From the IMG/VR virus record IMGVR_UViG_3300030108_004965, positions 64,001-128,000 of that record: DNA of 64,000 nucleotides; one strand, 5' to 3'. Positions 16,830 to 52,737 of this stretch are shown piece by piece. Below the pieces are notes generated by a model, which saw nothing but the letters and a program-made list of their open reading frames with translations, was not told the origin of the DNA and did no database searches. Source of the stretch: a virus. The position numbers and the translations under genes are program-made. The stretch's first letter is position 1; each line of letters opens with the position of its first letter.

Positions 16830-17010
16830 CTAACACCTCGTAGTATATAAGGAATGACGACCAGTTTGTTGTGTGGACATTATCATAACTACCGAACATT
16901 CTAACACGTAAGTGTTCTACTGTGATATCATTCGTTTCATTCTTTCCTACAACTTCAGCATGTCCATAGTTTCCTTTACTATCTCTCACCAATAACTTTT
17001 TATTTTTCAT
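16816..17010 (-). CDS. hypothetical protein (64 aa)
   Basis: Start MKNKKLL after GGAGG; ATGA overlap with upstream gene. Confidence 0.65.
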   Translation of the reverse strand: MKNKKLLVRDSKGNYGHAEVVGKNETNDITVEHLRVRMFGSYDNVHTTNWSSFLIYYEVLDELE

Positions 17011-17186
17011 GTGTCCTCCGATGTTTTCACTTTGATTAACCATTTATTTGAGTGGTTGCTTGTTACGCCATTTGCCCATTGTACAGCACTTGCGCCCGAA
17101 TGAGATACAGAACCCTCAACAACTCTTATCACGATACCTAGACAGTCTTTGCTTCCGCTGTATCGCACTAAATCTCCTACCTTCAT
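17007..17186 (-). CDS. KOW/SH3-like mini-protein (GDLV family, 59 aa)
   Basis: Manual ORF MKVGDLVRYSGSKDCLGIVIRV...VQWANG. Confidence 0.75.
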   Translation of the reverse strand: MKVGDLVRYSGSKDCLGIVIRVVEGSVSHSGASAVQWANGVTSNHSNKWLIKVKTSEDT

Positions 17187-17371
17187 AATGCCTCCAAATA
17201 ATCTTTGTGTACTCGCCTTGTCTCACCATCGCTCCATGTTACATACCATCCAAGATCCCATTCTCTAACCAGAACACCGACCTGCTCTCGATAGTCAACA
17301 TTGTCCATCTGCTCGTATTTCCTTCCAACGCACCATACCATCGTCCATTTAACTAAATCTCCTTTTTTCAT
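17183..17371 (-). CDS. KOW/SH3-like mini-protein (GDLV family)
   Basis: MKKGDLVKW...VGVLV...VTWSDG...YLEAL. Confidence 0.75.
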   Translation of the reverse strand: MKKGDLVKWTMVWCVGRKYEQMDNVDYREQVGVLVREWDLGWYVTWSDGETRRVHKDYLEAL

Positions 17372-17378
17372 TTTGTCC

Positions 17379-17552
17379 TCACGGGTTTGAGCATGCTATC
17401 AGTTCCATATCTTCATAGGAGCAAAGAACCGTTGTGTTGTCGAACAACTGGACAACAGCATACATTTCGCTTTCTGTGTCCTCCCAGTGGAGATCAATGA
17501 TGATCCCCATCTGGTCGATTATCTTGTCCTTTACCAAGTCTCCAATCTTCAT
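17379..17552 (-). CDS. KOW/SH3-like mini-protein (GDLV family, 57 aa)
   Basis: Manual ORF MKIGDLVKDKIIDQMGIIIDL...DMELIACSNP. Confidence 0.7.
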   Translation of the reverse strand: MKIGDLVKDKIIDQMGIIIDLHWEDTESEMYAVVQLFDNTTVLCSYEDMELIACSNP

Positions 17553-21024: not shown

Positions 21025-21042
21025 AAGCCCCTAAAGGGGCTT
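21025..21042 (-). terminator. hairpin overlapping the stop codon of the VWA gene
   Basis: AAGCCCC-TAAA-GGGGCTT, followed on the transcript by a C-rich tract rather than a U-tract. Confidence 0.45.
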
Positions 21043-22393: not shown

Positions 22394-23458
22394 TTAGTCC
22401 TTCTTAGCACCAAGGATCTCGATCATGTAATCACGAACAGAAGAACCGTTGGAAAGTTGCACAGAATGGACACCAGAAGCGTTGTGACGCTGTTCAGCAC
22501 CTGAAGCAATAACAGTCCAGAAAGACATGCCAATCTCCGATGGTAGCGTGATCATGTACTCAGCAACATTTTTCAGTTGATCAGCAGACAACTTATCATC
22601 GAAGCACTTAGATTGCTTGAACTTCTCGATAAGAGCGTTGTGGTCGTTGATCTTGAAGTCTTTGGTCAAATCAAGTTTGCCTTCATCCAAGATGTTCTCG
22701 ACAGTTACAATCTTCTTGTAGTTTGCAACGAAGTCATTGAAAGCGACCGCACCCTCGAAGCCAATGAAAGAAGAGGCAAGGTGATAAAGCACAGGGCTTT
22801 GCTTAATCTCCCCATTCATCGAGAGTAGAGCGTCTGAAAGACGAACCCAAGAGCGACGAGAAGGATAAACCTTGTTAGGCTCGTATTCATCGGTATGTTC
22901 AAGGTGTTGATGGTTTTGGTTGATGAAGTCCCAGATTTGAGAAACTACGTTTCCATCTGCCCAATCGAGCCAATCTTCAACCGTAGGTTGTACATCAAAG
23001 ACAGTATAGCGATCCAGTTCCGCTGGATCCATTTCACCAACTTGATACTGTGCCCCGTGTTCTCCACCGTTTACACAAGCAAAGATAAGGGTGTCGGGGT
23101 GTAGGGTATACCCTGCGATCTTCCGACTGTCGCATAACTCGAAGATACCTTGGCGAACTTCCATAGTTGCACGGTCTACTTCATCGAGGAATAGGATAGC
23201 AGGTTCATTGCAAGCGTTATGCAACCATTCTGGTGCAAGCCACGTAGTAACGTTGCCCTCTACCTTTGGTAGACCAAGCAAGTCACCTTCGGTCATCTGT
23301 GAAGCACGACGCTCGATGACAGGCAGACCACGGGCTTCTGCAATCTGATAGACGATAGCGGATTTACCGATACCGTGACGACCACGAATGAGAACAGGAA
23401 ACTTAGCGTCAAGGATGAAAGGAAGAACTGAGTTGAGAGTTTTGAAGTCAATAGCCAT
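22394..23458 (-). CDS. MoxR-like AAA+ ATPase
   Basis: Walker A GRHGIGKS, Walker B ILFLDEVDR, ELDRY; adjacent to VWA partner. Confidence 0.9.
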   Translation of the reverse strand: MAIDFKTLNSVLPFILDAKFPVLIRGRHGIGKSAIVYQIAEARGLPVIERRASQMTEGDLLGLPKVEGNVTTWLAPEWLHNACNEPAILFLDEVDRATMEVRQGIFELCDSRKIAGYTLHPDTLIFACVNGGEHGAQYQVGEMDPAELDRYTVFDVQPTVEDWLDWADGNVVSQIWDFINQNHQHLEHTDEYEPNKVYPSRRSWVRLSDALLSMNGEIKQSPVLYHLASSFIGFEGAVAFNDFVANYKKIVTVENILDEGKLDLTKDFKINDHNALIEKFKQSKCFDDKLSADQLKNVAEYMITLPSEIGMSFWTVIASGAEQRHNASGVHSVQLSNGSSVRDYMIEILGAKKD

Positions 23459-24088: not shown

Positions 24089-24261
24089 AAGACCTCCAGT
24101 TTATTAATCCAGTAATCCCCAACTCCCATTCCATTGAGCCAATGAACAGTTACCATAGTATAAATGCTCTCCGATGGCGATGTTATTTTCCTGAGTTCAA
24201 CCACAATACCCATGCCTTGGTGCATATCACTTTCATGCATTACTAAAGTTCCTATTTCCAT
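24079..24261 (-). CDS. KOW/SH3-like mini-protein (GDLV family)
   Basis: MEIGTLV...MGIVVEL...VHWLNG...KLEVLCK*. Confidence 0.75.
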   Translation of the reverse strand: MEIGTLVMHESDMHQGMGIVVELRKITSPSESIYTMVTVHWLNGMGVGDYWINKLEVLCK

Positions 24262-24956
24262 TATTTACCTCGCTTTTTACGGGATACAAGTTTGATTGCT
24301 CGCTCTTGTCGAAGTTGTTCGCCCGAAGGGAACATTATTCTGTATGTTCGAGTTCCACCTTTGGTTTTGTTGTATGTCGCGACCTCATGGACAACAGAAG
24401 CATCTACTTCTGTGATGAAGCCCATCTCTTTGTGTTCTCCCTGCTTCTCCTGCCAGTAGGTATATTCAGACTTGCGAACCTGTACCAAGTCACCTACGGA
24501 GTAGAGTAGGGGCTTTTCAAAAGTGTCTCGAAGTCTTGGGGCTAACTTGGAAGAAGTAAGTCTATTGCAATCTTCGAGACACGGTACACTACCTTCCGTA
24601 TCACGGGAGGCATGCAACACAGCACGAGCAGTTCGCTTGCGGTTGTCGATGTGATGGGCATAAGCCGATTGTCTTGAAGTGAGGAAGAAGGTAGCCAAGA
24701 ACAGAACCCATTCGCGATATGCACCATCCTCTTGCCACATTATACGGTGGTTCTCACGTTCTTCATCAATCTTACTAGCCTTCTCGTCCGAGTTGCGTTC
24801 CATAAGAACCTGAGCGAACTGGGCTTGACCAGAAGTCAATGCGCCCCACTTCTTCAGGCTTCTCGCCATGTCCTCTAGGATGCCGCTGTCTCGCAGATTA
24901 TTGAGTTTGTAGGCGTTGTTCATAGCGTTGATAAGTTGGTTGTGAGTGATGGTCAT
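24261..24956 (-). CDS. hypothetical protein with C-terminal GDLV/KOW-like domain
   Basis: ...YSVGDLVQVRKS...MGFITEV...YRIMF...ERAIKLV. Confidence 0.7.
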   Translation of the reverse strand: MTITHNQLINAMNNAYKLNNLRDSGILEDMARSLKKWGALTSGQAQFAQVLMERNSDEKASKIDEERENHRIMWQEDGAYREWVLFLATFFLTSRQSAYAHHIDNRKRTARAVLHASRDTEGSVPCLEDCNRLTSSKLAPRLRDTFEKPLLYSVGDLVQVRKSEYTYWQEKQGEHKEMGFITEVDASVVHEVATYNKTKGGTRTYRIMFPSGEQLRQERAIKLVSRKKRGK

Positions 24957-25213: not shown

Positions 25214-25544
25214 AGCCAGCCTCCATCATTATCAATGCAAAGGAAGTCAAGAGTTCATCGGCTGTGTGATCTCTGCCACCAGCGATTTCAACCATGCGGT
25301 CGACCTTTCCTTCTTCATTACAAGCAAACACTAATGTTTCCAAGTAGCCCATTCGGGTGCTTTCCGAGATTACGAAGTGATTGATCTTCGTAGCACCACC
25401 AATCAAAGAGCCGTGATTGCTTGGGTATCCATCGCTATCAATATAAAGACCCCATTCGGGAGCATGGACAACATACTGCTTGATGTAGGTATCATCGGAA
25501 AACACTGTCTTTTCTGTTTCGTTTATTACCTTCGGTATCATCAT
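25200..25544 (-). CDS. hypothetical protein (114 aa)
   Basis: ORF with GGAGG RBS. Confidence 0.7.
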   Translation of the reverse strand: MMIPKVINETEKTVFSDDTYIKQYVVHAPEWGLYIDSDGYPSNHGSLIGGATKINHFVISESTRMGYLETLVFACNEEGKVDRMVEIAGGRDHTADELLTSFALIMMEAGYDTI

Positions 25545-25738
25545 TTATCACCTTCCTTTGTTGGTGGTTGGAAGCCCATAGAAGGCTTCTCTGTGGCTTC
25601 TGGTGGTGTTGCCCGAACCATCATGGGCATACCCCCCATTTGGGGTGGTAGAGTAGCACTGGACAGGGCTAACACAGTTATTACTTTGTTTAATAGTTCA
25701 TCGGAAATGTCGATGGTTAGTTTGATTTGATTACTCAT
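25541..25738 (-). CDS. hypothetical protein (65 aa)
   Basis: Start MSNQIKL; RBS supplied by the LEVL codons of the upstream GDLV gene. Confidence 0.65.
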   Translation of the reverse strand: MSNQIKLTIDISDELLNKVITVLALSSATLPPQMGGMPMMVRATPPEATEKPSMGFQPPTKEGDK

Positions 25739-25917
25739 AGTACCTCCAAGTATCGGGGATCGCACCATTGCAATCCGTTTAGTTTTTTTATTTCATGTCC
25801 GAGGAAATGGACACGGATAGTGTGGTGTCCTCGGATTGGTTTGTTGTCGATAAGCACGACAATGCCTGATCTGAAGCCAAGTGCGCTCCCCATTCTTACC
25901 AAGTCTCCTACTTGCAT
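25735..25917 (-). CDS. KOW/SH3-like mini-protein (GDLV family)
   Basis: MQVGDLVRM...SGIVVLI...VHF...YLEVL*. Confidence 0.75.
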   Translation of the reverse strand: MQVGDLVRMGSALGFRSGIVVLIDNKPIRGHHTIRVHFLGHEIKKLNGLQWCDPRYLEVL

Positions 25918-26069
25918 ATTACCTCCAAATCCCACACAGACATATTGCATATATCCCCATCATTCCAAAGGACTTCCACTTCATTGTCGTCGCCTATCTG
26001 TTCGGGGTCTATACAGGCAATGATACCGATGTGTCCTTGGTCGTGTCTAACTAAGTCTCCTACTTTCAT
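25908..26069 (-). CDS. KOW/SH3-like mini-protein (GDLV family)
   Basis: MKVGDLVRHDQGHIGIIAC...VLWNDG...DLEVICK*. Confidence 0.8.
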   Translation of the reverse strand: MKVGDLVRHDQGHIGIIACIDPEQIGDDNEVEVLWNDGDICNMSVWDLEVICK

Positions 26070-26227
26070 ACGGCCTCCAAGTCGTCGGGGTTGCTTGTCC
26101 AAGTCTTTGCTCCACTGTGTTCTCCAAACCATTGGACATGGTGGTGAAAACCTACTATCTCGATGATGACACCGAGACACTGTGTGTGTCTGCAAGATAC
26201 CAATGTTCCTACTTTCCAGTTTCGCAT
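26066..26227 (-). CDS. KOW/SH3-like mini-protein (GDLV family, 53 aa)
   Basis: Manual ORF MRNWKVGTLV...LGVIIEI...VQWF...DLEAV*. Confidence 0.7.
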   Translation of the reverse strand: MRNWKVGTLVSCRHTQCLGVIIEIVGFHHHVQWFGEHSGAKTWTSNPDDLEAV

Positions 26228-26245
26228 AAGACCTCCAAGTCTTTT

Positions 26246-26301
26246 TGGTTATATTATACTCTTATCGGGTTGAATTGGATTTGTCAAGAAAAAAGTTTAT
26301 T
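26246..26301 (-). promoter_or_regulatory. class-B early promoter
   Basis: TTGACAaatccaattcAACCCGATAAGAGTATaatataacc. Confidence 0.75.
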
Positions 26302-26530
26302 TTAGTTCTATGACCTCGAAGCAGTGGGAGTATTCCATTTCGAGTTCTTCTTCTGTGTATGATAGGATGGTGGTGTAGTCCTTCCCTAGTCCACGCACAT
26401 TTCGGGGGCAAACCCAATAAATACTGTAAATGTTATCACCACGATAGTCTACATAGACTTGGAAAACTACGCCTGTATCTCGACAACCTCCAGTTGTATC
26501 TATGATAAGTTGTCCAAGTTTCAGTTTCAT
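26297..26530 (-). CDS. KOW/SH3-like mini-protein (divergent)
   Basis: LKLGQLII...TGVVFQV...IYW...FEVIELK. Confidence 0.7.
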   Translation of the reverse strand: MKLKLGQLIIDTTGGCRDTGVVFQVYVDYRGDNIYSIYWVCPRNVRGLGKDYTTILSYTEEELEMEYSHCFEVIELK

Positions 26531-26688
26531 AATGCCTCCAAGTCACAGGGGTCTAGCCACCCACCAGTTTGGTGTTGTATCTCGAACCAATAAACCCTTG
26601 CATATGTTTTCGATCCCCATTCCATAACATGGGTTACAACACCCATCAGCCCGTTGACTTCGCCTCTTATCAAATCTCCAACATTCAT
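26527..26688 (-). CDS. KOW/SH3-like mini-protein (GDLV family, 53 aa)
   Basis: Manual ORF MNVGDLIRGEVNGLMGVVTHV...VYWF...DLEAL*. Confidence 0.75.
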   Translation of the reverse strand: MNVGDLIRGEVNGLMGVVTHVMEWGSKTYARVYWFEIQHQTGGWLDPCDLEAL

Positions 26689-26897
26689 TTCGCCCCCTTA
26701 AATCTTTTGATTTCATATCGAGCCATAGGGAAGTTGTATGTTGTTCCGTCTTTTTTATACCAGTCAATCTGGTAGCCATGTCTTTGGTTCTTATATTCTA
26801 CGACCATTCCGAAAAGTCCGAGGACATTGTGGTTCTGGTCTAGTTTCTTCCCAGCCGCAGATAGTTCGACCAGTTCGCCATTCTCTATTCTTTTCAT
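26685..26897 (-). CDS. KOW/SH3-like mini-protein (divergent)
   Basis: IENGELVEL...FGMVVEY...IDWY..DG. Confidence 0.7.
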   Translation of the reverse strand: MKRIENGELVELSAAGKKLDQNHNVLGLFGMVVEYKNQRHGYQIDWYKKDGTTYNFPMARYEIKRFKGAK

Positions 26898-27064
26898 AGT
26901 GCCTCCAGCACTTGCTTTGTTGCGTAGTATTCCCAGTCTAAGGACTGGTCAAGGGTTATTACTTTGTAAACGGGGTCATCTGTTGCAAGGTCATCATAGG
27001 TTATACCAACGATAAGCACGATCTCCTCGACAGTTTTGTCAAACGCTATGTCTCCTATTTGCAT
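26894..27064 (-). CDS. KOW/SH3-like mini-protein (GDLV family, 56 aa)
   Basis: Manual ORF MQIGDIAFDKTVEEIVLIVGI...QVLEAL*. Confidence 0.7.
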   Translation of the reverse strand: MQIGDIAFDKTVEEIVLIVGITYDDLATDDPVYKVITLDQSLDWEYYATKQVLEAL

Positions 27065-27225
27065 ATTACCTCCACATATTTGTTGGGCAAAGACAGTTCA
27101 TACGTGTTTCCCACCGCCTTGGTTAAACCGATGATTTTCCAGCGGTTAAACTCGTTGGATACCCTTGCGGTTACGATCCCGATTTCATCGGTAGTTGTTA
27201 TTCTTACTAAACTTCCTATTTGCAT
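27055..27225 (-). CDS. KOW/SH3-like mini-protein (GDLV family, 56 aa)
   Basis: Manual ORF MQIGSLVRITTTDEIGIVT...YVEVICK*. Confidence 0.7.
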   Translation of the reverse strand: MQIGSLVRITTTDEIGIVTARVSNEFNRWKIIGLTKAVGNTYELSLPNKYVEVICK

Positions 27226-27413
27226 GTTACCTCCATAGGGTAGGAAATAAGTTTCAAGTCATAATCCTCATACCACCCGTTATGCTGGGGAGTAGAGGGG
27301 AAGTGTACTTCATAGGCACGTTGCTTCTTTCCGCTTTCTGGAAAGATCCAGCCAAGAGCCACGATAAAACCGATGTTGCCAAGCCCATCATCTACTAAAT
27401 CACCTATTTGCAT
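27216..27413 (-). CDS. KOW/SH3-like mini-protein (GDLV family)
   Basis: MQIGDLVDDGLGNIGFIVA...VHF...MEVTCK*. Confidence 0.75.
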   Translation of the reverse strand: MQIGDLVDDGLGNIGFIVALGWIFPESGKKQRAYEVHFPSTPQHNGWYEDYDLKLISYPMEVTCK

Positions 27414-27592
27414 ATTACCTCCAACCTGTGGCACTCCCACCAATGCTCGTAGCCTTCTGGTGTCCAGCAAACAAGAGCCGTGGGGTTGCTGGTGATAGTT
27501 GAACATTCAACAATCTTGACTACAATCCCGAAGGAAACACCAAAGGTGTTGACTTGGTTGTCTTTTATCTTCACTAAATCTCCTACTTTCAT
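27404..27592 (-). CDS. KOW/SH3-like mini-protein (GDLV family)
   Basis: MKVGDLVKI...FGIVVKI...VCW...RLEVICK*. Confidence 0.8.
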   Translation of the reverse strand: MKVGDLVKIKDNQVNTFGVSFGIVVKIVECSTITSNPTALVCWTPEGYEHWWECHRLEVICK

Positions 27593-27759
27593 GATACCAC
27601 CTCACACATAAAGTAAAGCCATTCTTTCTCGACACCTTCACAAAGAACAGTGTAAGTGCCATTCATAGCGTTTAGCCGAAGGCAAAGCCCAACATAGTGT
27701 TGGGGTTGCCCTCCAGTGTAGTCAGTGTATTGTATCAGTGATCCAACTTCATCATTCAT
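27589..27759 (-). CDS. KOW/SH3-like mini-protein (divergent, 56 aa)
   Basis: Manual ORF MNDEVGSLIQY...YVGLCL...MCEVVS*. Confidence 0.65.
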   Translation of the reverse strand: MNDEVGSLIQYTDYTGGQPQHYVGLCLRLNAMNGTYTVLCEGVEKEWLYFMCEVVS

Positions 27760-27835: not shown

Positions 27836-28735
27836 TTATAGCCAAAGTTGTATAAGGTCGGTCACACCTTCTTCATAGAGTTTTTCTTGTGAGCGTTTTT
27901 TCGTTAGGAACTCCATTGCTTTGGCATGCCCTTCTTCTATCCACTCCGCACCAAGGGGAGTTTTGGAAGGAGACAAGACAGATATAAACTGGGGTTCGTT
28001 CCAAGAGTATCGAGAACCTGTGTATTTCACCAAGTTTCGTTCAAGACTATTGCTTATTCTAACTCCTATACCATCTGTGCCGAAGGAAACAAGTTTTGTC
28101 TCGTTGCCGATCTGGACTGTGACTTTGAGGTGCTGTCTGTAATCGTCTTTTCGATAATCATAACCGTTGCTGTGTGTTTTACTTCCGCAGAATAAAGACA
28201 GTTCATGCCAGTTTACATCTGTAACAACTCCGATAAACTCTTCGGTTGTACGGTTGTTACCATAGCCGCTCTCGGTCTTTAGGTTGAGTAATGCTCCTTC
28301 GGAGATACCCATTTGCTCGACAAATACCTGATGGAACATTTTACGCCAGTTGCGATTGGCATTGATAGCATCGGTGTTGTAAGCGTCCATATCTTCGCAG
28401 TGTCTACGATTGTGTTCTGTTGAACCACAGAACCCACACTTCGATTTAGACCGCTTGCGACCAGTGTTGCCACGTTTTTTGGCGGCTTCTTGCTTTGCAT
28501 AAGCGTTCATGCAGTTTTGATACCACTCTCCCCAATACTTTGGGTTCTTGTACCAATGACAGGTAGCAGTAGACTTACTTACCCCGATGGGTATCACGGG
28601 AGGAGACTTTGTAAACCAAGCATAGTCCTCGGCTACACGGGGGCAGTTGGTTGCGTTGTGCCCTTCTGCTCGGCAGTAGGAACATTTTGATTTACTTCTG
28701 TAAGAAGTGTTTCCGCTGTTGTTGTATATATTCAT
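27836..28735 (-). CDS. double CCHC zinc-knuckle protein (paralog A)
   Basis: CSYCRAEGHNATNC and CGFCGSTEHNRRHC (CX2CX4HX4C). Confidence 0.8.
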   Translation of the reverse strand: MNIYNNSGNTSYRSKSKCSYCRAEGHNATNCPRVAEDYAWFTKSPPVIPIGVSKSTATCHWYKNPKYWGEWYQNCMNAYAKQEAAKKRGNTGRKRSKSKCGFCGSTEHNRRHCEDMDAYNTDAINANRNWRKMFHQVFVEQMGISEGALLNLKTESGYGNNRTTEEFIGVVTDVNWHELSLFCGSKTHSNGYDYRKDDYRQHLKVTVQIGNETKLVSFGTDGIGVRISNSLERNLVKYTGSRYSWNEPQFISVLSPSKTPLGAEWIEEGHAKAMEFLTKKRSQEKLYEEGVTDLIQLWL

Positions 28736-28737
28736 GA

Positions 28738-28989
28738 TTACTTCTCCTGTGAAGTTCGGGGTGTTTGTCCACCTGTGGACTTTGGTTTTTTAGGTTGTTT
28801 TTTAATGGGCATATAACACAAGCCCTCTTGTATCATTACAGAAGCGGTGCGACCGAAGAAGCCCTGCATAGACCATGCAAGTCCTGTGTCAATAAGGTGT
28901 TGCCACGCTTGAATGTATTGCTCGTCGCTATCGGCTTCTTGTGCGCCTTCGGCTATCATCGTAGCCTCTAAGTTAGTTAGTTTCTTCAT
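28738..28989 (-). CDS. conserved-looking phage hypothetical protein
   Basis: AWQHLIDTGLAWSMQGFFGRTA motif; GGAGG RBS. Confidence 0.7.
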   Translation of the reverse strand: MKKLTNLEATMIAEGAQEADSDEQYIQAWQHLIDTGLAWSMQGFFGRTASVMIQEGLCYMPIKKQPKKPKSTGGQTPRTSQEK

Positions 28990-29791: not shown

Positions 29792-30772
29792 TTATGGAAC
29801 ATGGTATCCATAAGATTTCAATCGTGCCTTAAGTTTCCCAGCGTTGCGACCTCTACGGGATGGATGGAACTTTGCTATCAACGGGGCTAGTTTACAGTTA
29901 ACTTCCCAAAGATTTTTGTTTTTTGCAATCCATTCCCAACACTCGGTATATCCATTGTTAAACCATTCTTCAGTAGGAATGTTCTCACTTGGTGCAAGGA
30001 TGTTATCTATTCTAGCACCCCAACTAGAGCCACGGTTGAACAACTCAGCAATCTTACCTTCTTTGCCCTGCTGGGTGTCGTTAATAACAAGAGAATGAAA
30101 CGGGTTTGTTAGTGTATGAGTTTGACCATCTATCAATACATCAATGCTTAACTCTGATTTGTAATCCCAATCTGATAGCGTCAAACCCATGTTGACCTGA
30201 TCCCAAGAAATAGCGGTGACAATACCAATCCCTGACCAGTTCTCTAGCCATAGGCCATTTTGTCGAAAGTGACTAGCAGACAAAGAAAGCAATGCACCTT
30301 CAGCAAAGCCCATACCCTTCACAAAACGCTCATAGAATAACTTGCGATAGTTCTGAGAGGCTCGGCCAAGATCGTCGATGAAGTTGTGCATAACATCGCA
30401 GTTCCTACGGTTATGCCCAGTCTCTCCGCAGAAGCCACAAGAAGTCTTGCGCTTTCGAGGCTTAACGCCCAGCCGTTCTAGTCGATCTTTCTTTTCCTTT
30501 CTGGCTTGTATCCGACGTTGTTGTCGGTCGTAGGCAGACTGCATGTTTCTGAAGATACGGTCATGATAAATCAACCTACCATCTTGATCTCTCTTACCGT
30601 AGGTGTTCCCATACCAAGTGGTGAACAGGCTAATGTCGGGTTCTTTGCCCTGCTTCTTCAGTTCCACCATCTTGGCTGGTACAGGGCAGGTCATCCACAT
30701 GTGACCTTCATTGCCACAGGTAGGGCAGTGTGTTGCTCGTTTATATCGATTTCTTTCTTCGTATATTTTCAT
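29792..30772 (-). CDS. double CCHC zinc-knuckle protein (paralog B)
   Basis: CPTCGNEGHMWMTC and CGFCGETGHNRRNC; shares NYRKLFYERFV..MG..EGALL and ILAPSE..P.EEW with paralog A. Confidence 0.8.
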   Translation of the reverse strand: MKIYEERNRYKRATHCPTCGNEGHMWMTCPVPAKMVELKKQGKEPDISLFTTWYGNTYGKRDQDGRLIYHDRIFRNMQSAYDRQQRRIQARKEKKDRLERLGVKPRKRKTSCGFCGETGHNRRNCDVMHNFIDDLGRASQNYRKLFYERFVKGMGFAEGALLSLSASHFRQNGLWLENWSGIGIVTAISWDQVNMGLTLSDWDYKSELSIDVLIDGQTHTLTNPFHSLVINDTQQGKEGKIAELFNRGSSWGARIDNILAPSENIPTEEWFNNGYTECWEWIAKNKNLWEVNCKLAPLIAKFHPSRRGRNAGKLKARLKSYGYHVP

Positions 30773-31420: not shown

Positions 31421-31617
31421 ATTACCTCCAAGTAGTAGCCATATTCGTGCGTAGGAGATGCGTTGTGTGCCCACAGCACCGCATACTCCTCATGTTCGTC
31501 CTCATACCCCCCTGCACCTCGGTAGGAGACTATCATCCCGATCCAATCGAACTCATTGCCAGATGGATCAGCGAAGCCCTTCTGGATCTTTACAAGGTCG
31601 CCTATCTCAAAGTTCAT
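31417..31617 (-). CDS. KOW/SH3-like mini-protein (GDLV family)
   Basis: FEIGDLVKI...IGMIVS...VLW...YLEVI*. Confidence 0.8.
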   Translation of the reverse strand: MNFEIGDLVKIQKGFADPSGNEFDWIGMIVSYRGAGGYEDEHEEYAVLWAHNASPTHEYGYYLEVI

Positions 31618-31894
31618 CCTTCACCTCCTTAACGTCCAGAAATGAGCCTATATAACCCACAGGACACCTATACATTATGACCCTCCAGCCCATGAACTGG
31701 GTAGGTAGACGGGTATGCCACGGGGATACCTCGGTATCCTCTGTCTCTGCGTATACGTCTAGTGTAGTACCGCAGTCATTCGATGCCTTGCGGATGTAGA
31801 AGGCACTATCCGTACACTCTATCACTAAGGATTTTATCTCTTCTTTTGCCTCGTCAAACGGGGCTTTCTCTTTATTCCAATGTATGTTAGCCAT
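31607..31894 (-). CDS. hypothetical protein (95 aa)
   Basis: RBS supplied by the MEVING junction of the upstream gene. Confidence 0.7.
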   Translation of the reverse strand: MANIHWNKEKAPFDEAKEEIKSLVIECTDSAFYIRKASNDCGTTLDVYAETEDTEVSPWHTRLPTQFMGWRVIMYRCPVGYIGSFLDVKEVKDEL

Positions 31895-32036
31895 TTATCA
31901 CCTCCATTTCGCTTTCTATGTGATAGCCTTGTGTGCCATCAGTCCACTGAACATAAAACTCTCCGTCGTATACCACTTCTGTGATAATGCCGATGTCTCC
32001 ATCTTCGTTGTATCTTACTAAATCACCTACTTCCAT
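31887..32036 (-). CDS. KOW/SH3-like mini-protein (GDLV family, 49 aa)
   Basis: Manual ORF MEVGDLVRYNEDGDIGIITEV...VQWTDG...EMEVING*. Confidence 0.8.
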   Translation of the reverse strand: MEVGDLVRYNEDGDIGIITEVVYDGEFYVQWTDGTQGYHIESEMEVING

Positions 32037-32202
32037 TTATCACCTCCAAGTTTTCTTTTCGTTCATAACTGCTTTTTTGATTGCTCCACTGGATCAGGCA
32101 CTGTTCCACTATCCCGAATGGGGTATATCCAAGCCGTTTCCTAACGACAATACCAAACAACCACTTTGTGTGCTTGGGGCTTACTAAATCACCTACTTCC
32201 AT
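32023..32202 (-). CDS. KOW/SH3-like mini-protein (GDLV family, 59 aa)
   Basis: Manual ORF MEVGDLVSPKH...FGIVV...IQWSN...NLEVINGSR*. Confidence 0.8.
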   Translation of the reverse strand: MEVGDLVSPKHTKWLFGIVVRKRLGYTPFGIVEQCLIQWSNQKSSYERKENLEVINGSR

Positions 32203-32350
32203 TTATCACCTCCATATCGCTTGGGTTCATAAATCCCAAATCTCCACAAGACCATTGTACCCACCAGCCACCTGTGTTGTGCTTGACAATAATACCTGTC
32301 CTGTTGCACCCATACTTTGACTTCATCTTTACTAAATCACCTACTTTCAT
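32189..32350 (-). CDS. KOW/SH3-like mini-protein (GDLV family)
   Basis: MKVGDLVKM...TGIIVK...VQWSCG...DMEVINGSR*. Confidence 0.8.
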   Translation of the reverse strand: MKVGDLVKMKSKYGCNRTGIIVKHNTGGWWVQWSCGDLGFMNPSDMEVINGSR

Positions 32351-32526
32351 ATTACCTCCAACTGAGTTGGGAAATACATTCCGTACTTTCCTGTGTTGAG
32401 CCACAAAACTCTCGTTCTTTGAAACTGGCCAGTTGGTGACATTGATCCTTCTATGACCATGCCAAACCAGTTTGATTTGTCGTGAGAGGTTTTGTGCCTA
32501 AACTTTACCAAATCACCTACTTTCAT
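32347..32526 (-). CDS. KOW/SH3-like mini-protein (GDLV family, 59 aa)
   Basis: Manual ORF MKVGDLVKF...FGMVIE...VLWLN...QLEVI*. Confidence 0.8.
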   Translation of the reverse strand: MKVGDLVKFRHKTSHDKSNWFGMVIEGSMSPTGQFQRTRVLWLNTGKYGMYFPTQLEVI

Positions 32527-32689
32527 TTATCACCTCCACATGATAACTGCCGCCAGTTGTAATGCGGCCATCACCCCACTGAATACGGTAAATCCAATGA
32601 ACAGGGTTTACTTGTTTCTTCTTGCTTATTACAATCCCAACACCTTGTTTCGGGTTGGTTGTTAGTTTTACCAAATCACCTACTTCCAT
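32513..32689 (-). CDS. KOW/SH3-like mini-protein (GDLV family, 58 aa)
   Basis: Manual ORF MEVGDLVKL...VGIVIS...IQWGDG...HVEVINESR*. Confidence 0.8.
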   Translation of the reverse strand: MEVGDLVKLTTNPKQGVGIVISKKKQVNPVHWIYRIQWGDGRITTGGSYHVEVINESR

Positions 32690-32828
32690 TTATCACCTCC
32701 AGTGATGTTAAAGGGCATAGGTAGATTTCATTATTGAACATAACACAGCAGTCACCATTTCTTCTTATCTCTACAAGAACACCGATGGTTGGGTCATTCG
32801 CAAACAAAACTAAATCACCTATATTCAT
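32676..32828 (-). CDS. KOW/SH3-like mini-protein (GDLV family)
   Basis: MNIGDLVLF...IGVLVE...SLEVINGSR*. Confidence 0.8.
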   Translation of the reverse strand: MNIGDLVLFANDPTIGVLVEIRRNGDCCVMFNNEIYLCPLTSLEVINGSR

Positions 32829-32829
32829 A

Positions 32830-33201
32830 TCAATACCCCACTTGTATTTCACGCTTGACATGGATCTCACTTTCCCACCAGTCGCCACGATACTCTATGT
32901 CTTCGAGTTCTTCGCCAATGCGGAGGAAGCGAAACTTTTCTCTTTTTTCAACATCTTCCTCCATAGCGTCCATAAACTTCTCAAACATTTGAATGTCTTC
33001 AAACTCATTGAAGGTGGTATACCATTTTATACTATTGCACGTAAAGAGCCAATGCCCCTCGCATTGATAGTCTTTATCGAACTCAAAGTCAGACATATCT
33101 CCAAAGATTTGAGCCATGAGTTCTTCTGTTTTGAGAAAGGTGAGGAAGTCACCTTGTAAGTCTTTGTGTATTGCTATTGCAACGTCTGATCTGTATCCCA
33201 T
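32830..33201 (-). CDS. hypothetical protein (123 aa)
   Basis: MGYRSDVAIAI...FRFLRIGEELED; GGAGG RBS. Confidence 0.75.
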   Translation of the reverse strand: MGYRSDVAIAIHKDLQGDFLTFLKTEELMAQIFGDMSDFEFDKDYQCEGHWLFTCNSIKWYTTFNEFEDIQMFEKFMDAMEEDVEKREKFRFLRIGEELEDIEYRGDWWESEIHVKREIQVGY

Positions 33202-33260
33202 TGGACACCTCCTGTTTGTTGGTTATACTATAAGTGTATCACGACCAGCCAAAAAAGCAA

Positions 33261-33275
33261 GGTCATTTTTTGTCC
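33261..33275. promoter_or_regulatory. palindromic operator (GGTCA-W5-TGTCC)
   Basis: GGTCATTTTTTGTCC abutting TTGCTT / TGaTACACT promoter. Confidence 0.7.
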
Positions 33276-33448
33276 GTTTTTATTATTCTTAATTCGACCT
33301 CGGCAATCTCGGAGATAACTCCATCGTTCCACCAAACTCTATACCATCTGTTCCCTGTGTACATGTGCGAAGAGATTACAATGCCGATCTTCTTTGTGTT
33401 GCTCCAAGTCCAGATAAACTCGACAAGTTCACCGTTCTGGATCATCAT
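33263..33448 (-). CDS. KOW/SH3-like mini-protein (GDLV family)
   Basis: IQNGELVEF...IGIVIS...VWWNDG...ELRII. Confidence 0.75.
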   Translation of the reverse strand: MMIQNGELVEFIWTWSNTKKIGIVISSHMYTGNRWYRVWWNDGVISEIAEVELRIIKTDKK

Positions 33449-33626
33449 TTAAGGCCATTAGTTCACAGTCTATAAGGTCAATCCCTTCAGTTCCATCTGC
33501 CCACAAAACATCGTAAGTTGTCTGATTGAATGTATTTAACTCTGGGCTTGTTATATCCGAAACGATCCCGATCATTCCGTGGTCTGCGTCGTATTGTATC
33601 CACATAACTAAATCACCTATTTTCAT
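33429..33626 (-). CDS. KOW/SH3-like mini-protein (GDLV family)
   Basis: MKIGDLVMW...IGIVSD...VLWADG. Confidence 0.8.
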   Translation of the reverse strand: MKIGDLVMWIQYDADHGMIGIVSDITSPELNTFNQTTYDVLWADGTEGIDLIDCELMALNDDPER

Positions 33627-33783
33627 TTATCACCTCCAATCCACTGGTGTACATTCCAGACCTGCTTCCGCACTGCCAGAACACCACGGCATATTCCTGA
33701 GCATGCACATGAAAACACAATATGTTCTCTACTATTCCGTACTGTTCGTGTTCTTTGTGTTTTACTAAATCACCTACTTTCAT
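33613..33783 (-). CDS. KOW/SH3-like mini-protein (GDLV family, 56 aa)
   Basis: Manual ORF MKVGDLVKH...YGIVEN...VFW...GLEVINENR*. Confidence 0.8.
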   Translation of the reverse strand: MKVGDLVKHKEHEQYGIVENILCFHVHAQEYAVVFWQCGSRSGMYTSGLEVINENR

Positions 33784-33934
33784 TTATCACCTCCAACCAT
33801 TGGATCTCGATCCAGTAGGTTTTACCACTAGACCAATAAACATTCGCATATCCTTTTGTAACCTCGACAATCATTCCGGTGTCTCCGGCAGAAGGATAAT
33901 CTTCACCTACTATAACTAAATCACCCCTCTCCAT
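33770..33934 (-). CDS. KOW/SH3-like mini-protein (GDLV family, 54 aa)
   Basis: Manual ORF MERGDLVIV...TGMIVE...VYWSSG...WLEVINESR*. Confidence 0.8.
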   Translation of the reverse strand: MERGDLVIVGEDYPSAGDTGMIVEVTKGYANVYWSSGKTYWIEIQWLEVINESR

Positions 33935-34121
33935 CGAACACCTCGTCGATGCTATCTATCTTCTTGATGAAATGCCCAGCAATGTCAGGGTGCTTTACTT
34001 TGAGCCACATGCCCACAATGTCGCACTCCCACATGTCTACAACCTCATAGTACACGGGTTCATAGTTTTGATACACTCCGTACCTTTTTGCTGTTACCTT
34101 ATCGCCTATTTTTATTCGCAT
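33921..34121 (-). CDS. KOW/SH3-like mini-protein (divergent)
   Basis: MRIKIGDKV... Confidence 0.7.
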   Translation of the reverse strand: MRIKIGDKVTAKRYGVYQNYEPVYYEVVDMWECDIVGMWLKVKHPDIAGHFIKKIDSIDEVFDGEG

Positions 34122-34297
34122 AATACCTCCATGCCCCAACTGTCATACGTCCAGCCTCTACCAGATCGCCCGTTTGAGAAAAGAACAACAAAGTAAGATT
34201 TACCCTCCATCCTATATTCTTCCGTCGCAATACCCAACGCACCAACCAATTGTTTGTTGTCGCTTTTTGTGACCATCACTAAACTACCTACTTTCAT
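34112..34297 (-). CDS. KOW/SH3-like mini-protein (GDLV family)
   Basis: MKVGSLVMV...LGIATE...VLFSNG...GMEVLCE*. Confidence 0.8.
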   Translation of the reverse strand: MKVGSLVMVTKSDNKQLVGALGIATEEYRMEGKSYFVVLFSNGRSGRGWTYDSWGMEVLCE

Positions 34298-34445
34298 TTA
34301 TCACCTCCATTCTTCTGGCTGGTGTCCAAGAATGATCCCCATCGTACCAAAGCACCTTGATGGTGAACTCATTCTGGCCAATCTCTGTTACTATTCCCAT
34401 TTGTTCACTATGGAATACATGCTTTACTAAATCACCTACTTTCAT
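34284..34445 (-). CDS. KOW/SH3-like mini-protein (GDLV family, 53 aa)
   Basis: Manual ORF MKVGDLVKH...MGIVTE...VLWYDG...RMEVINESR*. Confidence 0.8.
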   Translation of the reverse strand: MKVGDLVKHVFHSEQMGIVTEIGQNEFTIKVLWYDGDHSWTPARRMEVINESR

Positions 34446-34624
34446 GATGCCTCCTGTTTGTCGTCTAAGGGTCTGTAAAAGACCCTCCAGTTAATGTCGC
34501 CAATCTGGCAATACCTGTCTTTGTCTAGGTTGATACAGCCGATATATCCACCAACCAATGATGGTTCTGTGACTACGTATCTGTCGCCTAGATCCTTGTG
34601 TATGTAAATGTCGCCTACTTTCAT
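34442..34624 (-). CDS. KOW/SH3-like mini-protein (divergent)
   Basis: MKVGDIYIHKD... Confidence 0.7.
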   Translation of the reverse strand: MKVGDIYIHKDLGDRYVVTEPSLVGGYIGCINLDKDRYCQIGDINWRVFYRPLDDKQEAS

Positions 34625-34782
34625 ATTACCTCCAACAGATCCTTGTGGATACGGAATGTTAGGTTCGGTTTCCTCGATCTGTTCTTCTTATGAATAAAAA
34701 CAGCACAGTGTGTCGAAGATGCACTGACAACGATACCTATTTCTTTTGTGCTTTTGGTCATTACCAAATCTCCTGATTTCAT
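34621..34782 (-). CDS. KOW/SH3-like mini-protein (GDLV family, 53 aa)
   Basis: Manual ORF MKSGDLVMTKSTKEIGIVVS...LLEVI*. Confidence 0.75.
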   Translation of the reverse strand: MKSGDLVMTKSTKEIGIVVSASSTHCAVFIHKKNRSRKPNLTFRIHKDLLEVI

Positions 34783-35120
34783 GATGCTTTCCCCTTGTGA
34801 TTAGAGTTGCCGATGTTCTCTCCAACCTTGGAGAAAGCCACGTTATTAAGACCGCCACGACGTTGGTTATTCCAGCCTCTGTTGGCTTCCCAAGTCTTGC
34901 CGTAAATCTCTGCGTCATCCTCGCTGTCGAAGCGTAGGATCTGCATAGCCGCCATCTTACCATCACCGGTAGTGAAGGCACGAACTCTGCTCTTGATTTC
35001 AAGACCAAGTTCCTCGACGCAATCGGGACACTCGTTGATCTTGCCACCTGCCCGTCGCTTTTTAGGGCATTGCAAACTAAAGTCATCACCGCAGTGAATA
35101 CATTCTCTTATGTGTCTCAT
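34779..35120 (-). CDS. zinc-ribbon protein
   Basis: ECIHCG...ECPDC; GGAGG RBS. Confidence 0.7.
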   Translation of the reverse strand: MRHIRECIHCGDDFSLQCPKKRRAGGKINECPDCVEELGLEIKSRVRAFTTGDGKMAAMQILRFDSEDDAEIYGKTWEANRGWNNQRRGGLNNVAFSKVGENIGNSNHKGKAS

Positions 35121-35176
35121 TTGACACCTCCGTTTTGTTTGGGTTATACTATATCGTATCACGTTGTTAAAATAAA

Positions 35177-35401
35177 TCAAGGACAAATTATGTCCGAAAA
35201 TGCTTTGTAGAGTGCTGGTGTCCAGTCGCTCGGCTTTATCTCATAGTGAAACATTGATTTCCAAGTCTCACTACAAGTGAAGTCTCCATCGTTCCAAGCC
35301 ACTTGGAACATCTCACGATCATCATCATAATCGACAACAATCCCAATGAAAACGTCATCTGTGTCGCTTCTTACGAAGTCTCCGATCTTGAAGTTATTCA
35401 T
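35177..35401 (-). CDS. KOW/SH3-like mini-protein (GDLV family)
   Basis: FKIGDFVR...IGIVVD...VAWNDG. Confidence 0.75.
   Translation of the reverse strand: MNNFKIGDFVRSDTDDVFIGIVVDYDDDREMFQVAWNDGDFTCSETWKSMFHYEIKPSDWTPALYKAFSDIICP
35181..35195. promoter_or_regulatory. palindromic operator GGACA-W5-TGTCC
   Basis: GGACAAATTATGTCC abutting TTGATT / TGaTACGAT promoter. Confidence 0.75.
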
Positions 35402-36085: not shown

Positions 36086-36163
36086 TTTGTCCTCCTGACT
36101 TTGGGTTATACTATATTGTATCCCGTTGTGGTTCAGTTGTCAAATCTTTTCTGTTTCTTTTCC

Positions 36164-40651: not shown

Positions 40652-42220
40652 TCAACAAGCCACAATAGCATGGGACGTTGTCAATAAAGTTCCCGCAGCA
40701 CTCGTAGCATTACGCAAAGCGCACTTGGTAACTTTACAAGGATCAATGATTCCTTTCTCGTAGGTACTAGTCAGTTCCCTATTCAAAAAATCATAGCCAA
40801 TATCTCCCTCGCATGACTTTACGTTTTTAACTATAATGTCTGCAGACTCTCCAGCATTTGTTGCCATTTGTCTCAAAGGTACCTCGCATGCCTTTAGCAC
40901 CACTTGTGCACCCAGAGATTGTTCTTCATTGTCTGTCTCAACAAACAAGCCGGTGGTGGCTCTGAGTAAGGCTACTCCACCGCCCGGTACTATACCCTCT
41001 TCCTGCGCAGACCTAACAGCCTCTAGAGCATCATCAATACGGTGGCGCTTCTCAATCATTTCTACTTCAGTTTGAGCACCCACTTTGATCACCGCTACAC
41101 CCGATGCCAGTCTGGTTATTCTTTCCTGAAGTCTTTCGCACTCAGAAAGATTGTCTGTTTGTTTTATCAGTGCCTTTACGGTCTCGATTGTATCATCAAT
41201 CTTTTGATTATTTCCCTTGCCTCCGACAACTGTTGTCCAAGTCTTGGTTATATTAATGTTTTTGCATTGCCCAAAGTGATTGAGGGTAACATCTTTTAAG
41301 GTCAGAGAGTTCTCTCTTGTAATGAATGTTGCTCCTGTGCTGACGCACAAGTCCTTCATTATGTTTCTTCTCTCCTCTCCATACTTTGGTGCTTTGATAG
41401 CACACACCTTCATTGTACCACGGACTGCATTGGCAATGAAAGCAGCAAGGGCTTGACCTTCAATGTCGTTTGATATCAAAACCAATGGACGATTGTCTCT
41501 TGCGGCAAGTTCGAGTACTTTCATTACCTGTTCAATGTGTTCAACCTTTTCATCTGTCACAAGAATAAGCGGATTGTCATAGTTCACCATTGCGTTTCTT
41601 TGGTCTGTGATAAAGGTGTTGCTAGCATACCCAGAATCGAATCTAAAGCCTTCAATAAGGTCTAGTGATGTATTCATACTCCGAGCCTCTTCAACGAGCA
41701 CAGAACCATCTTTACCGGCTTTGTCAATAGCGGTTGCAATAAGTTTACCAATTGATTTATCATTGTTGGCAGAGATGGTTGCAATGTGTCTTATGTCCTC
41801 GACAGTTTGAATGGGTCTCGACATTTCTGTGAGTTTCTCTGTGATAACTTCGACTGCTTTATCCATGCCACGTTTTAATTCAACAGGAGATACACCTGCT
41901 GTCATATACTTTTGTGCTTCTTTTAAGATCGCACGAGACAATACTGTTGCGGTGGTTGTTCCATCACCAGCAGAGTTCACTGTTTCTTCTGCTGCTTGCT
42001 TGATCACTTGTGCTCCAAGGTTTTGGAACGGGTCTTCAAGTTCAATGAACTTTGCAATTGTCACACCATCTTTGGTGATGACAGGTAGATTCTCTTCTTT
42101 ATGGTATAGTGCTACATTCCGCCCTCGAGGACCGAGAGTGGTTGCAACATTATCCGCAAGAATGTCAACTCCCTCCAGAATCTTTTGGTTGAGAGTTTGT
42201 CCTTGGTCATAATGTTTCAT
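40652..42220 (-). CDS. groEL: group I chaperonin GroEL
   Basis: TLGPRGRNV, TKDGVT, GDGTTTA, GIVPGGG; lacks GGM tail. Confidence 0.97.
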   Translation of the reverse strand: MKHYDQGQTLNQKILEGVDILADNVATTLGPRGRNVALYHKEENLPVITKDGVTIAKFIELEDPFQNLGAQVIKQAAEETVNSAGDGTTTATVLSRAILKEAQKYMTAGVSPVELKRGMDKAVEVITEKLTEMSRPIQTVEDIRHIATISANNDKSIGKLIATAIDKAGKDGSVLVEEARSMNTSLDLIEGFRFDSGYASNTFITDQRNAMVNYDNPLILVTDEKVEHIEQVMKVLELAARDNRPLVLISNDIEGQALAAFIANAVRGTMKVCAIKAPKYGEERRNIMKDLCVSTGATFITRENSLTLKDVTLNHFGQCKNINITKTWTTVVGGKGNNQKIDDTIETVKALIKQTDNLSECERLQERITRLASGVAVIKVGAQTEVEMIEKRHRIDDALEAVRSAQEEGIVPGGGVALLRATTGLFVETDNEEQSLGAQVVLKACEVPLRQMATNAGESADIIVKNVKSCEGDIGYDFLNRELTSTYEKGIIDPCKVTKCALRNATSAAGTLLTTSHAIVAC

Positions 42221-52708: not shown

Positions 52709-52737
52709 GTTGTCCTCCATGATTGTATTATGTTTAT

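Follow-up and report, generated by a model that had tools for sequence, protein, structure and literature searches.

About forty small genes of a complete marine phage of about 192 kb are joined head to tail by a short repeated coding junction, at which the end of one gene, the Shine-Dalgarno (SD) sequence and the start of the next gene overlap, and the gene cassettes bounded by these junctions differ in content and order between related phages. The DNA analysed, here called the window, consists of 64 kb (bases 64001-128000) of one 191,696-bp virus contig rated complete (IMG/VR record IMGVR_UViG_3300030108_004965), and positions below are those of the window. The original prediction had described a 34-nucleotide (nt) repeat acting as C-terminus, ribosome-binding site and N-terminus at once, and both the reading frames and a listing of all junctions agree with this triple role. 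We consider it probable that the junction is in the first place a compact joint for coupled translation, which doubles as a stop pad and whose repetition provides short homology for the shuffling of cassettes.

A search for the 34-mer with up to 3 mismatches, controlled by 100 dinucleotide-preserving shuffles, gave seven matches in the window and none in the shuffles. They stand at the seven positions originally predicted, all of them on the minus strand, which corrects the earlier description. Exact copies lie at 32015..32048 (between the 32023 and 31887 cassettes), 32181..32214 (between the 32189 and 32023 cassettes), 32505..32538, 32668..32701 and 33762..33795, the last being replaced by another junction type in the strain-level contig L041; the copy at 33605..33638 has 2 mismatches and that at 34276..34309 has 3. 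Copies are spaced 157-166 nt apart, which fits the predicted 115-145 nt of unique DNA between them. A 35-nt run (TGGAGG...GTAAG) is common to the copies at 32015 and 32181, so that the 32023 cassette stands between identical direct repeats. The variants listed earlier proved to be real junctions as well (32350, 33934, 34445, 34624 and 31420, with many further ones at 17-27.6 kb), and those at 32350, 34624 and 31420 read GGAGGTAAT-ATGA.

The 34-mer has therefore to be described as one of at least four junction types. Type A (GGAGGTGATAA-ATG..GGTGA) overlaps by 14 nt and lets the upstream protein end in LEVIN[GE]SR, type B (GGAGGTAAT-ATGA) overlaps by the 4 nt of ATGA and gives LEVI, type C (GGAGGTAAT-ATGCAAATAG) overlaps by 11 nt and gives LEVICK, and type D (GGAGGCATT-ATGA) gives LEAL, each directly followed by the stop. 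In type A the upstream gene finishes with TTG GAG GTG ATA AAT GRA AGT AGG TGA (L-E-V-I-N-[G/E]-S-R-stop), and the downstream gene starts 14 nt ahead of that stop with ATG RAA GTA GGT GAT TTR GTA (M-[K/E]-V-G-D-L-V), so that the upstream stop is the TGA within GGTGAT of the next gene, and one nucleotide, read in two frames, decides both between G and E in the tail and between E and K at the next N-terminus. The codons for L-E-V contain TGGAGGT, the SD sequence of the next gene, which extends to the 9-nt SD GGAGGTGAT with the next ATG five bases on. We take GGAGGTGAT to be a 9-nt match to the usual anti-SD at the 16S 3' end. Half-junctions, in which only the upstream half (SD and ATG) is used, were confirmed ahead of two unrelated genes, namely a 95-amino-acid (aa) non-family gene (MANIHWN..., 31607..31894, minus strand) and a 65-aa non-family gene (MSNQIKL..., 25541..25738, minus strand), the latter preceded by TTGGAGGTACT-ATGA. 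The 34-mer holds no inverted repeat or hairpin, and the RNA of five folded junctions was unstructured, with z-scores from -0.96 to +0.63 against shuffles.

The first codons of a cassette, ATG RAA GTA GGT GAT, encode the start of the first strand and at the same time carry stops for both of the other frames, one being closed by ATGA or TAG and the other by the TGA inside GGTGA. An upstream gene thus ends whatever its frame, and the tail after LEVI (NGSR, NESR, CK etc.) is a by-product of the neighbour. Frame +1 is closed by nt 9 in every family gene, through ATGA or the TAG of [GA]TA-GG, and within 14 nt a stop has been reached in each of the two foreign frames in 76% of the family vs 31% of the other genes (Fisher p = 2e-12). 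Where the upstream gene comes in on frame +2 and depends on the TGA of GGTGA, 31/33 genes use GGT; in the remaining genes it is 23/38. Programmed frameshifting that would fuse adjacent barrels was considered and dropped, since the overlaps, at 4, 11 or 14 nt, put the junction types in different frames, and a strong SD and a start codon are present in every type.

Conservation at synonymous positions, claimed to go beyond the need of either peptide, was examined in 63 genes starting with M-x-[VI]-G-D-L-V, with genome-wide long-gene usage and codons 2-10 of 369 non-family genes (the 5'-codon null) as references. GTA stands at codon 3 in 32/40 genes (genome-wide 25%, 5'-codon null 43%), GGT at codon 4 in 48/63 (38% and 23%), GAT at codon 5 in 56/63 (67% and 59%), TTR at codon 6 in 56/63 (50% and 53%) and GTA at codon 7 in 38/63 (25% and 43%). 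The skew holds against the stricter 5'-codon null, with p values from 4e-3 to 6e-19 that are overstated, related copies having been treated as independent. The conservation is thus real and above a codon-usage null, as claimed, yet from the sequences it can largely be explained by the 9-nt extended SD, the off-frame stops and AT-rich 5' codons; what is left over is TTR, GAT, and GGT where no overlap requires it.

A scan for N-termini of the M-[K/E]-V-G-D-L-V type found 27 genes in the window, from which a family hidden Markov model (HMM) was built; it matched 32 genes in the whole phage and 98 in four related genomes. The cassette open reading frames (ORFs) around the 34-mer are 49-65 aa long, within a family range of 49-75 aa. 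Array 1 (33263..34782, minus strand, from ORFs and HMM matches) consists of nine overlapping small genes behind a 113-aa anchor gene (34779-35120, minus strand): 34621-34782, 34442-34624, 34284-34445, 34112-34297, 33921-34121, 33770-33934, 33613-33783, 33429-33626 and 33263-33448; this series recurs in independent Tara, JGI and NCBI contigs. Array 2 (31887..32828, minus strand, from ORFs and HMM) holds six overlapping family genes (32676-32828, 32513-32689, 32347-32526, 32189-32350, 32023-32202 and 31887-32036) between the MANIHWN gene and a 123-aa non-family anchor gene, an ORF at 32830..33201 on the minus strand that opens the operon. Array 3 (25735..27759, minus strand) has eleven family genes, joined for the most part by junctions of type C (LEVICK) and of types D and B (LEAL, LEVL), and further family genes found by the N-terminus scan lie at 17379-17552, 17183-17371 and 17007-17186 (17007..17552, minus strand). 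The cassette order of the window itself was confirmed in independent contigs from several projects. Several family genes (32676-32828, 33263-33448 and others) fall below 60 aa or leave the upstream start ambiguous, and simple gene callers miss or mis-start such cassettes, also in the public calls on near-identical contigs.

AlphaFold2, given a 45-sequence alignment, predicted five strands at residues 6-9, 15-24, 29-36, 41-45 and 49-51 (predicted local distance difference test score, pLDDT, 92.9), with G-D-L-V at strand 1 and L-E-V as the last strand, and with confidence dropping over the last residues, including the tail after LEVI. Since the predicted barrel places GDLV and LEV in strands, both ends of the repeat would encode structural strands, and the extra tail would be a by-product of overlap. 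With G-D-L-V modelled in strand 1, the idea that the conserved N-terminus targets the capsid was set aside. Foldseek gave template-modelling (TM) scores of 0.75-0.83 to HspQ, eS4 KOW, PetP and Tudor domains at E-values of 0.006 or weaker. Matches to Pfam were weak (KOW6_SPT5, SH3-C and DUF3104, the best at 17.5 bits vs a cut-off of 27), the best PHROG E-value was 4e-5, to families of unknown function, and no Pfam or PHROG model was matched above threshold by the cassettes or by the 123-aa and 95-aa genes. A profile search returned 243 matches, all metagenomic and unnamed, largely from ENA, Tara and JGI. As modelled, the family is an SH3/KOW/Tudor-like five-stranded barrel with conserved strands and hypervariable loops. 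It shares the predicted five-strand barrel with the SH3-like small barrels (KOW, Tudor, PetP, HspQ), and its G-D-L-V ... G-I-V pattern resembles the KOW motif, but the cassette proteins reach no curated Pfam or PHROG model and the Foldseek E-values are weak. Judged from fold and promoter context only, they are most likely early-expressed small binders of host targets.

Relatives were sought by an exact search with the 26-nt core in IMG/VR, which gave two contigs (G001 and G002); G003 was reached through the 123-aa anchor protein, and a fifth lineage, L044, through a family match. G003 is a complete 187-kb relative, collinear with the phage genome-wide at about 75% nucleotide identity. As supposed in the original prediction, cassette order is not invariant between relatives, and homology stops at the junction. 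Array 1 has six genes in G003 vs nine in the window and array 2 has three vs six; only about a third of the cassettes have an orthologue of at least 50% aa identity there, and the orthologues of 17007-17186 and 26297-26530 are found translocated into other arrays. The content of array 2 differs in every relative examined. In G001 the block opening with the 123-aa gene stands behind the orthologue of 24261-24956, having moved along with its promoter cassette, and the orthologue of 25908-26069 (81% nucleotide identity) comes next after the 123-aa gene. An 81%-identical 31887 cassette lies directly behind the 113-aa anchor in L044.

In translocated cassettes homology extends from the ATG to the SD or the stop, and the same body may be attached to type A or to type C depending on the genome; the 31887 body occurs with four tails before the stop, EVING, EVI, EVICK and EVIDGNR. 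The ends of blastn alignments between arrays fall within -25..+30 nt of a start codon in 65/118 cases vs 22% expected (p = 6e-15), a statistic that is inflated because the junctions are conserved in all copies and pull alignment ends towards them. Orthologous junctions are conserved across lineages at about 75% overall identity. The interiors of paralogues are much diverged: in each of four genomes their aa identity has a median of 26% and does not exceed 57%. The five lineages showed no remnants of cassettes, whether truncated or fused, although single cassettes are clearly dispensable.

A tract of about 90 nt, positions 32000-32090 of the window against about 10270-10360 of locus L012 (G001), is 97-100% identical. 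It covers the C-terminal part of the 32023 cassette and its junction, and the neighbouring interiors are 50-65% identical. The tract is a mosaic one and suggests a recent exchange between lineages.

Exact copies of the 26-mer core were found in 117 marine metagenome stretches, which yielded 98 junction instances with both flanks. When bodies were clustered at 80% or more nucleotide identity, these 98 instances comprised 65 upstream and 67 downstream clusters in 81 distinct pairs, and more than one partner was found for 9/19 multi-member upstream clusters and 10/20 downstream ones. The 32189 body (>90% aa identity) is followed by 32023 in the window and in L139, by 31887 in L081, by 32513 in L089 and L116, and by a 31887-like body in L068. 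Behind the 123-aa gene, array 2 of the window runs 32676, 32513, 32347, 32189, 32023 and 31887 to the MANIHWN gene, that of L116 has 32189 and 32513 before MANIHWN, and that of L081 has 32189 (95% nucleotide identity), 31887 (95%) and another cassette before MANIHWN. In L081 the 32189 body meets the 31887 body directly through a 32181-type junction, and exactly the 32023 unit is absent.

At strain level, about 20 contigs of 96.7-100% nucleotide identity (and one more at 92%) were collinear, without gain or loss of cassettes. Three contigs are exceptions. In L032, identity is 99.6% from the fifth codon of the 33934 gene on, preceded by different codons 2-4 and another cassette upstream. L052 differs only in the 14 nt ahead of the ATG at 32350. 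L041 (98.6%) has a type-B junction at 33783 that is identical over 35 nt to the 32350 junction, a change for which conversion is an easier explanation than an indel combined with substitutions. Polymorphisms between strains form clusters of cassette size. Contigs of loci L032, L052 and L041 (sample ERR598984) tend to begin or finish at cassette junctions, so that assemblies of the array are fragmented at the repeats, and two array variants coexist in one sample. Three apparent differences were discarded, namely a 155-nt insertion in L047 (a scaffold gap of 100 N), differing gene calls in L056, L059 and L060 (a gene-caller effect on the same sequence), and an extra 50-aa cassette in L041 (the same gene with an altered junction type). 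As far as these comparisons go, lineages of up to about 95% identity show turnover, which is rare among near-identical strains. Exchange happens, but slowly; 'shuffling' therefore fits, and 'accordion' does not. Of the recombination-driven accordion put forward in the original prediction, the differences in content and order between relatives have stood, and recent duplicates have not been found (maximum 57% aa identity), nor is it consistent with the collinear contigs.

The enzymes encoded by the phage are compatible with the absence of an integrase that had been predicted. The tyrosine integrase model PF00589 had no match in the 191,696-bp genome and matched all control genomes, serine recombinases not having been searched for; RecT and ERF were searched for and not found. 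A phage recombinase is present in the form of a RecA-family gene (G000:C1:132668-133951, E = 9e-41). The genome has no match to the reverse transcriptase model PF00078, and a diversity-generating retroelement is excluded as far as tested.

In the reading that we favour, the junction would first serve dense coupled translation, the two structural ends of the family and the embedded SD making a compact joint, and its 5' half would also be a stop pad, whichever the frame. With the same 26-35 nt returning every ~165 nt, and again in related phages, the junctions might act as short homology patches, at which general recombination, possibly through the RecA-like gene, or slippage would delete, insert, swap and reorder whole cassettes with expression kept. 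Such cassette exchange would be the logic of Botstein 'linkers' or of promoter-early stem-loop (PeSL) elements moved into coding sequence. Several points weigh against this reading. No recombination event was directly observed, and selection against broken cassettes could alone place the surviving breakpoints at gene ends. The core common to different junction types is only about 7-10 nt (TGGAGGT), which is microhomology and no RecA-type substrate. The breakpoint statistic is subject to the inflation mentioned above, and the codon tests count related copies as independent. Identical repeats of 26-35 nt may yield chimeric joins from short reads, so that some cases of different partners are possibly artefacts, and some JGI records are possibly re-assemblies of one sample. 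Moreover, the events must be rare, since about 20 near-identical contigs from several samples show neither gain nor loss.

A more far-reaching interpretation, which we regard as possible but tentative, is that the junction has been selected as a portable 'plug': each cassette would bring its spacer, start and both-frame stops and end in an SD for its successor, so that short-homology recombination could link any two cassettes without loss of expression. If so, a global marine phage clade would keep a combinatorial, exchangeable library of SH3-like binders, in an integron-like system that works at the level of translation signals and has no dedicated recombinase.

Rather unlikely, in our judgement, is an explanation by constraint only, according to which the junction is conserved for the strand, the ribosome-binding site, the start, the N-terminal strand and the off-frame stops, and random illegitimate recombination followed by selection (mosaicism of the Hendrix type) would account for the turnover of cassettes, the repeat being no recombination site. 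In its favour, the 9-nt SD, the TAG/TGA stops and the AT-rich 5' codons can account for most of the synonymous conservation, the junction RNA is unstructured like an ordinary initiation region, and both the conservation of orthologous junctions across the ~75%-identity lineages and the stability of the strain-level arrays are in line with it. However, five lineages with dispensable cassettes have left no truncated or fused remnants, and the synonymous bias persists without overlap (GGT 23/38, TTR 56/63). The swap in L041 to the 35-mer of another junction of the same genome would need an indel and substitutions in a 98.6% background, and the 32023 cassette lies between 35-nt identical direct repeats, with one relative lacking exactly that unit.

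We give very little credence to a dedicated site-specific system, in which an unrecognised phage or host recombinase would read the junction like an integron attC site, perhaps through circular intermediates. It would account for the precision of the cassettes and their combinatorial partners, an AGGTGAT direct repeat within the junction offers a candidate binding site, and the mini-circles of PeSL elements are a precedent for circular intermediates in phages (PMC2839356). Against it stand the lack of a tyrosine integrase, RecT or ERF (serine recombinases and unknown enzymes lying outside the search), the lack of a hairpin or inverted repeat in the junction, and the fact that junctions of several types work equally, whatever their length and frame. 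Least credible of all is an adaptive copy-number accordion as in poxvirus K3L, with recent tandem duplications under selection and later contraction, which fits the tandem layout with direct repeats every ~165 nt and is disfavoured by paralogue interiors of median 26% and maximum 57% aa identity and by unchanged copy number in the strain-level contigs.

All long ORFs of the window run in the same direction, and the stretch from about 17 to 36 kb, the region of the family, is plastic and divided into several operons. Each operon is ordered as a repeated, putative terminator-promoter cassette, a non-family 'anchor' gene and a chain of paralogues of 49-75 aa. The repeated cassette is a composite element separate from the 34-mer and consists of a hairpin (GGACA-n5-TGTCC), a TTGAC box, a TACAAT-like box about 17 nt on, a TATAACC-CAAACAA leader, an SD and an ATG. 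Eleven copies occur in the window (15.9-36.1 kb), ten in G003 and three in G001. The TATAACC leaders of the window (15909-36143, minus strand) are at 36110, 35148, 33227, 30799, 29015, 26253, 24982, 23881, 18432, 18141 and 15909, and two subtypes can be told apart by the -10 region, with GTGATACA in one and CCGATAAG in the other. One copy, recognised by the repeated pattern (hairpin, -35, -10, TATAACC leader and SD), precedes the 123-aa gene at 33202..33275 on the minus strand, and another precedes the 113-aa anchor and array 1 at 35121..35195 on the minus strand, with its hairpin at 35195-35181. A generic sigma70 scan of the window showed no enrichment (46 vs 37 ± 6 in shuffles), so that the promoter cassettes rest on their own repeated pattern. 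The composite looks like a PeSL analogue outside the T4-type phages, its promoter and terminator being putative.

The 123-aa anchor is conserved at 77-85% aa identity in G001, G003 and L044, with another genome position in G001. In the same region, a zinc-knuckle-like pair of paralogues of 326 and 299 aa (29792-30772 and 27836-28735, minus strand, about 28% identical) carries the CCHC zinc-knuckle-like motifs CPTCGNEGH and CGFCGETGHNRRNC, and L044 has a third copy of 310 aa. An 83-aa gene at 28738-28989 (minus strand), with 88-90% conservation in relatives, invariably comes directly ahead of the 299-aa zinc-knuckle-like gene; the precomputed annotations of near-identical contigs give it a match to Pfam DUF7417. 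The window further encodes GroEL (40652-42220), a DnaE-like polymerase (49253-52720), an HNH-family protein (21041-22294) and an AAA_5/MoxR-like ATPase (22394-23458). GroEL and the polymerase have distant relatives only (27-45% identity), the polymerase being 27-30% identical to DnaE of Bacillus and Streptomyces phages. A near-identity search with a 5-kb region against GenBank phages gave no match, and no close relative was found among them.

If the junctions guide exchange, the phage would offer a clear natural case of modular evolution by 'linker sequence' at single-gene resolution and inside coding sequence, for which the 117 metagenome stretches constitute a large natural data set for breakpoint mining. 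The unannotated family makes up roughly one gene in eight to ten of the phage (about 32 of roughly 250 called genes), and with hypervariable loops on a stable mini-barrel its members are candidate host-takeover or anti-defence binders. The design of the junction, with extended SD, short spacer, start and both-frame stops, is a compact recipe for the frame-independent chaining of small genes. It is also a warning that short-read assemblies and gene callers mishandle such arrays, missing genes below 60 aa and breaking contigs at junctions.

The original prediction did not recognise a described system here, and our literature search found no paper describing an identical one; the logic nevertheless matches that of Botstein linkers and PeSL shuffling. 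Modular shuffling by PeSL elements in T4-type phages was described by Arbiol et al. 2010 (PMC2839356) and Comeau et al. 2014 (PMC4122927); the PeSL authors had already drawn the comparison with integrons and noted that for recombination in T4 less than 50 bp of homology is enough (PMC2839356). As with PeSL, a plastic region has short conserved expression signals recurring between its small non-essential genes and offering homology patches for cassette change without an integrase; the repeated element (here the coding junctions) marks the limits of what has been inserted, deleted or replaced between relatives; and hairpin-promoter composites of matching architecture stand at operon starts. Unlike PeSL, the junction lies in two overlapping coding sequences and not between genes, it carries a translation and not a transcription signal, and all cassettes belong to one protein family. 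In the 'linker' concept of Botstein and Campbell, conserved flanks steer exchange to sites that keep a module placed and expressed (PMC2839356), whereas here coding junctions of 26-35 nt bound single genes of about 55 codons and not multi-gene modules. The T4 internal-protein (IP) loci are likewise defined plastic loci with highly variable small proteins and conserved flanks (PMC2839356), but fold and context differ, and the conserved N-terminus is here the predicted first strand of a barrel.

Integron arrays are also one-directional series of small, exchangeable, promoter-less cassettes driven from an upstream promoter. Here, in contrast, there is no IntI-type integrase, no attI and no structured attC, and the cassettes overlap and are paralogous. 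Large DNA viruses possess multigene families and genomic accordions such as poxvirus K3L and the African swine fever virus (ASFV) multigene families (MGF). These resemble the arrays as large viral families of tandem paralogues, presumably for host interaction, and differ in that the phage has no recent identical copies and very small members joined by overlapping translation signals. What is new in this phage is a linker that lies inside overlapping coding sequence, is made of translation signals and serves one hypervariable barrel family, while the logic itself is already known.

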